Shown: positions 16,102-53,638 of the stretch, in pieces
Numbering within the stretch: position 1 is the first letter of the stretch
Layout of the letters: each line of letters starts with the position of its first letter
Translations under genes and position numbers: made by a program
The notes under the pieces: model-generated
What the model was told of the DNA's origin: nothing
Databases searched by the model: none
What the model saw: the letters and a program-made list of their open reading frames with translations, nothing else
DNA from: Eledone cirrhosa
Taxonomy: Eukaryota
Length of the DNA: 64,000 nt
Assembly: GCA_964016885.1 (NCBI GenBank)
Contig: OZ024745.1
Span: 43,462,001-43,526,000 of the forward strand
Direction of reading: 5' to 3'

Positions 16102-16200
16102 GTAGTTGTTGGAGACAAAGTAATTTTAAACCCTGTCAATGCTGATCAGCCATTGCATGCCAGCAATTATAACCTGGTTGATAATGTTGCATGCAAGGAG
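16102..16200 (+). CDS. ITPR: IP3 receptor coding exon C
   Basis: tttacAG|...GAG|GTaaat, 99 nt. [33 protein letters not shown] vs ITPR1 [33 protein letters not shown]. Confidence 0.96.
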
Positions 16201-18795
16201 GTAAATATAATCTATTTCATGTCATAGAAATAAATCTCTTCTTTCTAAAATAAATGTGTAAATTTTAACTGCTTCAAAGCTGCTTAGTAGTTTGTTTAGT
16301 GCCATACAATATGTTGGTGTATAGGCATGTTTTTCTTTTTTATAACCTTTTCTTTCTAATCAGAATTCTACTAATATTAAATTAAATAAGTTTTGGAATT
16401 TGAAGCCTGTGTTATTAGTTGCTGCTATTTTAGTAAAAAGTTACTAACCCAGTAGATTTGTTATATTTGGTCATCAATTTTAACATCGGTAACCTCATGC
16501 TGTGTCCTCGTCAACTGGGTTCTCCTAAACACAATGGAACCCCCTGTGATCGAGGAACGTGAGGCCACCTGTGAGATGTGGAACCAGCTGAGACTTAGCT
16601 CAGTAGACAACCCCCCCCCCCTCCTTCTCCTCCTGTATTTTAACAGATATAAACATAAGAAATAAAACAAATACAAATAACATGCTATACTATAAGTTTC
16701 TCTCATTTTAAAGAATAAAGAATTTATTTTATCTATTTTCAAAAAGGAATATCTTTTGATAAATGTCTTTAAATAATTACCAAACATAATTCTTTCTATC
16801 TCTATTTTACATCATGGAGGCACATGGTCTTGTGGTAAGGGTATTGGACTTATGATCATAATGTCATGGGTTTAATTCCTAGACTGGATTTTGTCTGGTG
16901 TTCTTGAGTAAAACACTTCATTTCATTTTGCTCCAGTATATTCAGTTGAAAATGAGTACCAGCAATATCTGGTGATTTAACCCTGTGATGGATTGAGGGG
17001 GAAGTCTTGTACTCTGTTGCTTAATGCCATGGAAACCAGGATATACACTGGCCTGAGATACACTTTTGACTCTCACACTGTGTGAAGTGTTGATGCAGGT
17101 TAGATAAGAACAACACAAAATTGTATTGTTCTGTTATAATTGGAATTATTTGAGCACGTAAAGAACTTTTGAGCTGACCTTTACTTGCTCGCCATGAGAT
17201 TACAATGTTTCACTATATAAACTGATAAATGAAGGTATTCCTTGTACTGGCTGTGTGTAAATAAAGATACACAGCCCAAAACTTAACATTTCTTTTTAGA
17301 AAATGGAGAATGGTTTATGGAAATTAATACTACTACACCTGATGTTTATATAAGCATTTCTTTCTCTTAATAAATACTCTTACAAAATTTTAATTTGCTT
17401 AGGAATCTGATACTGCTTTATAATAAATATTATCTGTTATTTATACATGATACAACTTTAGTTTATTCCTCAAAGTTCATATATCTTACTTCTTCTTACT
17501 TAAAAAGTTCAGACTAGTTAAGAATAACACATCATTCAGATATAATTGCATATATGCACAAATACATAAAAACTTATTCATAAGAAATCCCAAATACTGC
17601 ATTGAACCCCAGCATTGAAAACACTCCAATTTTGACGTTTTGAAAATCTGGATTTTCATGTACTTTACTAAGATATTTTGTTCATGGTTTAGTGACATAT
17701 AGAACTTGTTGATTATAATCTGCAATTCTTTGTTTTACTTTTACCAAATAACTTTTATAACAAATTGCAAAATTTTACTTCTTTTGCCATTTGATAATCA
17801 CTTTAAATCAAGGTTATTTAAGGAGAGTGAAACTGGTAAAATTGATATACTTCATATACGTAAAACTAATATAATTACTACTTGACAGTTGGCTAGATAG
17901 TCACCATTTGCCAGTAAAGGAATGGATTTTTGTGATTATATTTATTACTATTATTTTCTAATGATACTTTTTCTTTATTTACTATCTTAACTAAGTATAA
18001 TTTATATGCTTTATCCAGAGATCAAATTACTTCTGTTTTTCCTAACTACTACTTTAATTCTCTTTTAGTTATCATCTATTTATATCTGTCTGACTGTGTG
18101 TCTTTCTGTCTGTGACTAAATCTCTACGACTCAATACATAGCTTGCCAAGTATGTTCAATGACAATCCCACTACTGCAAGTAAATCAGATTTAAACATTA
18201 GAAAAGCTAATCTTAAACCAATATTAGCAATGTTAATAAGTAATGAAGTTAATGATAGTTACAAATGGTATAACTATGATGCTGTAGCTGTTACTGATGG
18301 TGAAGGTTACATTAACAATGACAATGCTGCAACTACTAGTAATGATGATGATGGTGGTGACAATGATATTTATAATGACAACAATAGTGAGAGCATCACA
18401 TGATAATGAATAAATTATTTTGGTAAATAATTCCAACAAGCTTGCTAAACATTTTGTAAGCATCATTTAAAATCTTATCTACAATGCCAGTTGAGAAGAA
18501 GGGGACTTACAGAAGGCAGTGTAAACAATTCATAGACAGACTCACAAGGTTCTGGGTTCAATCTCATTGTGTGGCACCTTGTGCAAGAGTTTTCTACTAT
18601 AGCCTCAAAATGAGGAATAAAGTTAATAGGGACAGATGTGTATTTTAAAACTGTATCATTTTAACACTTTTCTTCTTTTATTCTGCTTTGATGAAGTGTG
18701 TAACACAAAATGCCAGGTCCTTCCCTTTCTTTTCATTTAGTGTAATTATTTTCATTTTTCTACATGACAGCTTTCCTAGTGCTGGTGATCTACAC

Positions 18796-19134
18796 CAGGG
18801 GTTTTCAACCTGGTCCATGTGGACCACTAGTGGTCCACAGGAAAATTCAGGTGGTCCACAGAAAATTTTCAATAGCAAATTCTTTTTTGATCCATGCATT
18901 TGACTTAAAGCGCTGTTCTTATTCTTCGCATAAGTACGACTTCAGCTGTTTATTTGCGTAGATTTTTAGGCACTGCGACATGATAATAGCATTTTCTAAT
19001 TCATTGAAAAAAAAACATCTACTGATGCTTATAAGTAGCAGTTCTATTACAAAAGATTTAAAAGTTTAGGTGGTCCACAGGAAAAAATTACTTATTTTGG
19101 TGGTCCACAGCGAAAAAAAGGTTGAGAACCCCTG
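18796..19134. mobile_element. hAT MITE
   Basis: TIRs CAGGGGTTTTCAACC...GGTTGAGAACCCCTG, exact 8-bp TSD ATCTACAC (18788-18795 and 19135-19142), and subterminal GTGGTCCACAG repeats. Confidence 0.92.
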
Positions 19135-19587
19135 ATCTACACAATAAAAACACCCAGTACACACAGTAAAGTGGTTGGTGTTAGGAAGGGCATCCAGCCA
19201 TTGAAAGTTTGCTTAACAAGGGGTTAGGAGGACCCTTCAGTTTGTGTCAAAAGACATGACAACTTCTCCTCTGCACTCAATATGACCATATGTAAGAGGG
19301 ATACAGACCCCACAGCCTGTCTGGAAGGTCAGTAGCCCCACTTCAGTACTGATTTGGTCTATGTAGACCTGTCCAACCCTTGCTAGCAGGGAGAGTGGAC
19401 ATTAAATGATGATGATGATATTTTGTCCACTACCGTGTTTTATTTTGTCACTTTTTGTTTACCTTGTTTAATCCCCAACCTCATTCAACTGTCTCCTTCC
19501 TCTTTCACCTTATTTTATTTTTGCCATTTTTTTTTACCTATGTATATATATTTATGTGAGTGTATGTATATGTAAGCATGTATATAT

Positions 19588-52479: not shown

Positions 52480-53328
52480 ATATCTCTTTTCCTTTTGAGT
52501 TCAAATCTCACTTGGGTTAACTTTTATCCTCTGGGGGTCAATAAAATAAATATCAGTCAAGTCTTGGGGTTGTATATCAATTACAGCCCCACTCTCCTAA
52601 AACTTGTGGCTCTGTGCCAAAATTAAGAATCTTTATGATTATTAAAGCATTGAAAGGGTGGGTGGTGGATTGATGGAGTCAGTCGAGCAGTAGACAACAT
52701 GCTTTGCAGCATAGAGTTACACCCCTTTACGTTCTGAGTTCAAATCTTGCCTAGGTTAGCTATGCCTTATTGAGTTGATAAGATAAAATACCAGTATTCC
52801 ACTGAGGTTGATTTAAATGACTTTCCCCTCCCCCCCACTAATTGTTGGCCTAGTGCCTAAATCAGAAATCATTATTATTGTTATCATATTGGCAGAATTG
52901 TTAGAACATTGGACATAATGCTTTGTAGCATTCAGTTACATTTCTTAATGTTCTGAGTTCCTATCCTGCTACAGTTAGCTTTGCCTTTCATCCTTAAGAA
53001 GTCAATAAAATAAAGTACCACTAATGTACTTAATCGACTTTCCTCTCTCCACCCACCCACCCCAAAAAAATTGTTGGCCTTGTGCCTAAATTAGAAAACA
53101 TTATTATTATTAGTTGATTGGCAGTATCGGTAGAGGGTCGGACGCCATGCTTTGATGCGTAGAGTTACGGCCCTTTCCAATCTGAGTTCAAATCCCGCTG
53201 AGGTTAACTTTGCCTTTCATCCTTACGGGGTCGATAAAATAAAGTACCAGTAATGCACTGGGTAATTGCTGGCCTTGTGCCTAAAGTAGAAACAATTATT
53301 ATTATTATTATTATTATTATTATTATTA
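52480..53328 (+). mobile_element. Head-to-tail cluster of four family-1 SINEs
   Basis: B-box/core motifs at about 52497, 52735, 52953 and 53183, each followed by an ATT-rich tail. Ends in (ATT)n. Confidence 0.85.
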
Positions 53329-53538
53329 GGCCAATGTTCTTTTATGTAATATGTGACTTTGAACAAGGAAAACTGTTAATTGACAATTAGGTTTACTTCT
53401 AACTGTCCTGTTAGACCAGTATTAGTGACCTATTAAACAGAGAAGTTTCACCACAGCATACTTTAGGGCATTGTACAACTGATCAGTTGACTTATATTTT
53501 TGTAATCCATATTAAAATTATTTCTTCATAATTTGCAG

Positions 53539-53638
53539 ATCTTCTTTTGTCCGTCTTCGGCATCTGTACACAAACACCTGGGTGCACAGTACATCAATAC
53601 CTGTTGATAAAGATGAAGATAAACCTATCATGAACAAG
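53539..53638 (+). CDS. ITPR: IP3 receptor coding exon H
   Basis: tttgcAG|A...AAG|GTgact, 100 nt, completing the phase-2 codon of exon [34 protein letters not shown]. Confidence 0.96.

Follow-up and report, generated by a model that had tools for sequence, protein, structure and literature searches.

Six adenosine-bearing codons of the Eledone cirrhosa ITPR gene: probably tolerated G>A substitutions, translated mostly as encoded

Restorative recoding in coleoid cephalopods, as described in PMC6881472 and PMC8382921, concerns genomic adenosines lying where outgroups encode the residue that A-to-I editing gives back, and the class is defined by the observed edit. Compared with synonymous sites, restorative ones show editing more frequently and at higher levels, with a median below 2.5%, and the G>A dN/dS (ratio of nonsynonymous to synonymous change) is raised in neural-specific genes (PMC6881472); conserved recoding sites keep their A across coleoids (PMC8382921). 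A stretch of 64,000 nucleotides from the octopod Eledone cirrhosa (contig OZ024745.1, positions 43,462,001 to 43,526,000, forward strand; hereafter the window) contains part of a gene for ITPR, the receptor of inositol trisphosphate (IP3), in which six codons would return to a conserved residue if a single A were read as G. An earlier note, made from the letters of the window, had proposed that these sites may be edited and that the receptor could be tuned in this way. The case is similar to restorative recoding by its coleoid host and by the genomic A where outgroups encode the restored residue; it differs in that it is known from a genome, and in that RNA-derived relatives keep the genomically encoded residue at five of the six sites. 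The six codons look, with fairly good probability, like fixed and tolerated G>A substitutions in an ordinary octopod ITPR, translated mostly as they are written. The residues themselves are already present in public Octopus proteins, and the idea of restorative editing has already been published.

The mammalian receptors ITPR1-3 (PDB 1n4k, 3uj0, 6dqj and others) resemble the Eledone protein in their domain order and in the RTTGR motif. Nine ITPR exons lie on the + strand of the window, from 6013 to 61005 (Table 1), and their in silico splicing gives an open frame of 364 codons free of stops, every acceptor being AG and the donors GT in eight cases and GC in one. Over these residues, the Argonauta orthologue is 96% identical, and those of O. 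bimaculoides, O. sinensis and O. vulgaris are 97% identical. Considering the window together with 400 kb of flanking genome, the gene spans about 262 kb and at least 51 exons, on which 2551 of the 2732 residues of O. sinensis isoform P0378 were placed in order, the other 181 being unmapped in the gene-wide codon map; its G+C content at third codon positions is 34%. The domain set, read on the 97%-identical orthologue P0388, comprises Ins145_P3_rec, MIR, two RYDR_ITPR, RIH_assoc and Ion_trans, with SPRY absent. RTTGR aligns with ITPR1 residues 265-269, so that R265, T267 and R269, which contact IP3, are retained. A second ITPR copy of the RTTGR-bearing exon was considered and rejected, this exon being single-copy in the genome. 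The locus is a single-copy octopod IP3 receptor gene of ordinary type. Relative to Octopus, at least 13 residues are private to Eledone over the whole gene.

All six adenosines are found in frame, in ITPR exons of the + strand, as the earlier note had described. They are A16145 (GAT, Asp to Gly when read as G), A32095 (ATA, Ile to Val), A33628 (ATT, Ile to Val, the first base of its exon), A33704 (GAT, Asp to Gly), A35670 (AGT, Ser to Gly) and A53568 (TAC, Tyr to Cys). The mammalian residues given in the earlier note are borne out by the PDB chains, in the numbering of rodent ITPR1: G190, V262, V286, G311, G378 and C394, respectively. This numbering is used below, the genomically encoded residue being called the A-form and its A>G counterpart the G-form. 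A lizard ITPR2 carries Ile at 262, and PDB 3uj0 has Ala at 394. As mapped on the orthologue, site 190 belongs to the suppressor domain and the other five to MIR sequence within the IP3-binding core, where A32095 does adjoin RTTGR, three residues upstream of R265. An assembly error as the source of the A-forms was rejected: contigs X1-X3, from one DNA-like sample that is possibly the assembly's own, contain only the assembly letter at 32095, 33628, 33704, 35670 and 53568. The comparison with X1-X3 covered these five sites; at 16145, Asp is common to four other octopod rows and to two of the three sister-group rows.

Residues at the six sites were compared between 35 non-cephalopod ITPRs and eight coleoid rows. 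The G-form is the majority residue at every site in the non-cephalopods, with 27, 32, 35, 35, 18 and 34 occurrences out of 35 at 190, 262, 286, 311, 378 and 394, and it is present at all six sites in a chiton, Aplysia, Patella, Lingula and nemerteans. The proposal that the A-forms arose by lineage G>A changes is supported by this distribution, and they are likely derived. Judged from living species only, among which no named squid or Nautilus turned up, outgroup support for the G-form is strong at 262, 286, 311 and 394 and weak at 378 (18/35). At site 190, seven of the eight coleoid rows have Asp and one has Glu, for a panel composition of G27 E4 A1 D1 V1 S1. All eight rows have Ile at 262 (panel V32 I3), Ile at 286 and Asp at 311 (panel invariably Val and Gly), and Ser at 378 (panel G18 T5 A4 S2 V1, with five gaps). 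Site 394 is more variable among coleoids (Y, Y, F, F, Y, C, C and Y along the rows; panel C34 V1).

The A-form residues are not restricted to coleoids. The earlier note had held that its editing idea would be refuted if they were encoded in non-recoding molluscs; this is the case at three sites, where they occur in named non-coleoids, namely D190 in Crassostrea, Lutzomyia and Megaselia, I262 in Gigantopelta and Patiria, and S378 in Mercenaria. Some insect-like records also have I286 (two records), D311 (1/69) or Y394 (3/44). Site 378 admits Gly, Ala, Thr, Ser, Val, Lys or Glu, and site 394 admits Phe (6/44) as well as Tyr. FLTGD, which the earlier note had listed among deviations that do not fit, is not particular to this lineage, being shared with the chiton, several gastropods, nemerteans and Owenia. 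As judged from sequence comparison, Gly311Asp would be the only residue of mild interest, at a position nearly invariant outside coleoids. HMMER aligns D311 with Asn in both sister MIR repeats of ITPR itself. A turn position of this kind can take Gly, Asn or Asp, and the Asn of the sister repeats thus suggests that a residue other than Gly suits this turn.

A look for RNA runs covering 31200-35720 listed none, a blank that counts neither for nor against editing. RNA-derived proteins from another coleoid group give an indirect view of what is translated. A Logan cluster of 14 proteins, 86-87% identical to Octopus, branches as sister to Octopoda with support 1.0, and is probably decapodiform according to branch lengths. 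Eight full-length records of 2654-2690 residues were kept, their 44 contigs measuring at most 8.2-10.9 kb, and the six other members, which do not cover the sites, were dropped. A gene of 50-odd exons being too large for contigs of this size, these records are most simply understood as spliced transcripts. I262, I286, D311 and S378 are found in all eight, D190 in seven and E190 in one, so that the restored G-form is seen in none of the eight at sites 190, 262, 286, 311 and 378. The Ile of a further protein (P0182) at 286 was discounted as intron read-through. Editing at these five sites was below majority level in the Logan samples, the contigs following the majority path only, in unspecified tissue of another order, and majority contigs cannot reveal editing levels below about 50%. 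Since the sister coleoid group has them too, D190, I262, I286, D311 and S378 likely go back to the stem of the coleoids.

The sixth site behaves differently. The first five residues are identical in the four Octopus and Argonauta proteins examined (XP_052834537, XP_029648662, CAI9717097 and GAB1604735). At 394, O. bimaculoides XP_052834537 and Argonauta hians GAB1604735 share the Tyr of Eledone, also found in one Logan record, whereas O. sinensis XP_029648662 and O. vulgaris CAI9717097 have Phe; the seven other Logan records have Cys, either encoded in the genome or produced by editing. An A>G change cannot turn Phe back into Cys, and restoration is thus not required in these close relatives. 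Three other variants (residues 12, 1484 and 1970 of the P0390 cluster; V/M, V/M and N/D), located outside the window, differ among near-identical Logan records, all three being of the A/G type, and could possibly be edits or alleles.

The earlier note had also called for a test for an excess of G>A substitutions; none emerges over the whole gene, and a nominal one is found in the window only. Differences were classed only at columns with at least 80% agreement among non-cephalopods, and the tallies come from living sequences, with related species pooled, so that the P values are rough. Over the whole ITPR, 19 of the 89 Eledone deviations are A>G-restorable (21%), with 10 of the reverse class, 8 T>C and 3 C>T. 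The restorable fraction in the 35 non-cephalopods averages 15.5% (standard deviation 4.1%, maximum 23%), three of them equalling or exceeding Eledone, and the pooled Fisher test is not significant (P=0.11). Having an A where a mammal has G is thus no sign of editing: in animals without heavy recoding, roughly every sixth deviation belongs to this class. Coleoid-shared changes give the same picture gene-wide, with 6/31 restorable (five in the reverse class) versus 131/831 in 14 other groups (P=0.37), or 16/87 versus 290/2070 at 60% agreement (P=0.16). The exact Eledone codons show 5/15 restorable in the window versus 13/74 outside (P=0.15; 0.92 after correction by a sliding scan). T>C-restorable changes also exceed their reverse (8 versus 3), as expected from AT drift on both strands. 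In the gene-wide map, intron ends supplied three window codons, two of them still with the correct residue and one masking a real Ile/Val difference at 60845, where the exon opens with ATC (Ile) and seven other coleoid proteins have Val. This Ile reads as a recent G>A change of the base that opens the exon. Position 16123 holds another codon restorable by A>G, absent from the earlier note (ATT, Ile, coleoid-shared; Val in 86% of the panel, with Ile also in ITPR3). A coleoid-shared Ala-Tyr at 10961-10966, in the suppressor domain, replaces the Pro-Phe of 97% of the panel and cannot be reversed by editing.

Sequence context and published site lists bear on editing itself. A 5' G is disfavoured by ADARs, and the 5' neighbour is G at three of the six adenosines, C at two and U at one. 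In 200-base local folds, none of the six sites departs from a background of 80 exonic adenosines (best rank 5%), distant pairing partners not having been searched. PMC4384741 mentions that ADARs have neighbour preferences. Codon-class rates in PMC8382921 are about 0.6-0.9% for GAT>GGT and 9-15% for AGT>GGT, with uncertain denominators. From its ST6 and ST7, 0.2-0.3 edited sites would be expected among six such codons, with a 19-28% chance of at least one, a rough base rate since both tables may cover different columns. Table S5 of PMC9989829, on high-confidence recoding in O. bimaculoides, admits isolated sites edited at 10% or more in two samples, and contains no row with the label MIR or Ins145. 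The only RYDR_ITPR row belongs to an SPRY-bearing gene with nine high-confidence recoding sites, which would be a ryanodine receptor. A literature search for ITPR or IP3 receptor with cephalopod A-to-I editing found nothing relevant, although some supplements may list ITPR sites. No ITPR match was found in the supplements of PMC4384741, PMC9068888 and PMC7703385, which apparently, judging by size, do not hold the full site lists, or for ITPR editing in the main text of bioRxiv 2025.12.15.694494.

The simplest scenario, then, is that five G>A changes (D190, I262, I286, D311 and S378) would have been fixed on the coleoid stem, that the sixth site, Y394, would be labile and differ among coleoids, that the protein would tolerate the A-form residues, and that the mRNA would be translated mostly as the genome encodes. 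Reversible pairs such as V/I, G/D, G/S, C/Y and R/K are common in any lineage, and several are therefore expected per 360 residues compared with a mammal. A number of observations weigh against this scenario. G311 and V286 are fixed in all 35 panel sequences. Coleoid-shared changes of the window are enriched in the restorable class, with 4/8 versus 17/120 (P=0.025) and, in a second tally, 6/16 versus 29/258 (P=0.009); compared with the rest of the gene, the P values are 0.026 and 0.040, uncorrected for about seven such stretches, and the enrichment is post hoc, this stretch having been picked because the pattern was noticed there. Octopod-only differences from the Logan group and the panel lean in the same direction (11/40 restorable versus five reverse), a lean that could come from AT drift or from edits in the Logan contigs. 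The Cys at 394 in seven of the eight RNA-derived records could be an edit. That material comes wholly from the other order, none being from Eledone, and its private differences provide no positive control (four A>G-type versus four G>A-type among 19 positions). The ITPR gene model may also be absent or split in the annotation underlying Table S5.

The earlier note's idea of editing at these sites, and of a receptor tuned by it, finds no support in the RNA-derived records or in the gene-wide tallies, which do not refute weak editing. Low-level neuronal editing at one or two sites, as a by-product or as a harm-permitting restoration with no tuning role, is unlikely but deserves consideration. 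It would most likely concern A53568, for its U-A-C context, or A35670, whose Ser>Gly codon class is the most often edited one. The low median of restorative editing, the base rate given above, the Cys of seven RNA-derived records next to the Tyr of an eighth, and the blindness of majority contigs to such levels all go in this direction. However, none of this is read-level data, a Cys codon in the genome explains the constant Cys394 of 43 contigs equally well, no site is distinct in local folding, and Table S5 has no corresponding O. bimaculoides row at its threshold. Tuning of the suppressor and IP3-binding domains through strong, conserved recoding at several of the six sites is very improbable. 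It would account for the local excess among coleoid-shared changes and for the A retained at four sites in all eight coleoid rows, reminiscent of the conserved recoding sites, and the related ryanodine-receptor-like gene of O. bimaculoides is indeed recoded. It is difficult to reconcile with the absence of any G-form at five sites in the eight RNA-derived records, with the 5' G at three sites, with the editability lost at 190 (Glu, in P0402) and at 394 (Phe), with the lack of a gene-wide excess, and with the lack of ITPR-domain rows in Table S5. It is also very doubtful that neurons partly edit back one or more of the adenosines behind Gly311Asp and Val286Ile, at otherwise nearly invariant positions of the IP3-binding core (or that of Tyr394), which would produce two receptor populations of different IP3 sensitivity. 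If true, strong neural editing at D311 or I286 would offer a clean test of harm-permitting versus adaptive editing, in a ligand-binding domain that can be assayed directly.

If receptor variants are produced from this part of the gene, alternative splicing appears a likelier source, on sequence grounds, than the six A-form codons. The predicted micro-exon (Table 1) encodes eight of the nine residues of an insert found in O. sinensis isoforms P0378 and P0301 (X1 and X5), and the insert falls six residues past site 378. The intron following the RTTGR exon is likely of the GC-AG type: its donor reads GCAAGT at 32167-32172, and the junction with 33628 agrees with all orthologues.

Table 1. ITPR exons located in the 64,000-nucleotide window.
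Feature	Position	Strand	Basis
ITPR exon, suppressor domain	6013..6099	+	in-frame join, AG/GT ends
ITPR exon, suppressor domain	10835..10993	+	in-frame join
ITPR exon with A16145, Pfam Ins145_P3_rec	16102..16200	+	in-frame join, PDB alignment
ITPR exon, suppressor / IP3-binding core junction	31228..31311	+	in-frame join
ITPR exon with A32095, GC donor at 3' end	32020..32166	+	in-frame join
ITPR exon with A33628 and A33704	33628..33723	+	in-frame join
ITPR exon with A35670	35529..35689	+	in-frame join
Likely alternative 27-nt micro-exon, phase 2-2, IP3-binding core	46169..46195	+	AG/GT ends, orthologue insert
ITPR exon with A53568	53539..53638	+	in-frame join
ITPR exon, MIR end / armadillo start	60845..61005	+	in-frame join

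A protein search with the variable exon among proteins of up to 2000 residues gave no match, and an atlas search returned MIR-type clusters only. A tandem array at 4-1687 of the window consists of 31.8 copies of a 53-base unit with 95% matches. An ITPR intron holds, on the - strand at 56240-59362, an uninterrupted frame of 1040 codons which resembles by eye the endonuclease and reverse transcriptase of a long interspersed nuclear element, and a second, broken copy of this kind is seen at about 61091-63919. Elsewhere in the genome, a weak RYDR_ITPR match (L011, G000:C17:27175855-27175992) lies on a third contig, besides those of ITPR (C5) and of a second locus (C2), and may be a divergent family member.

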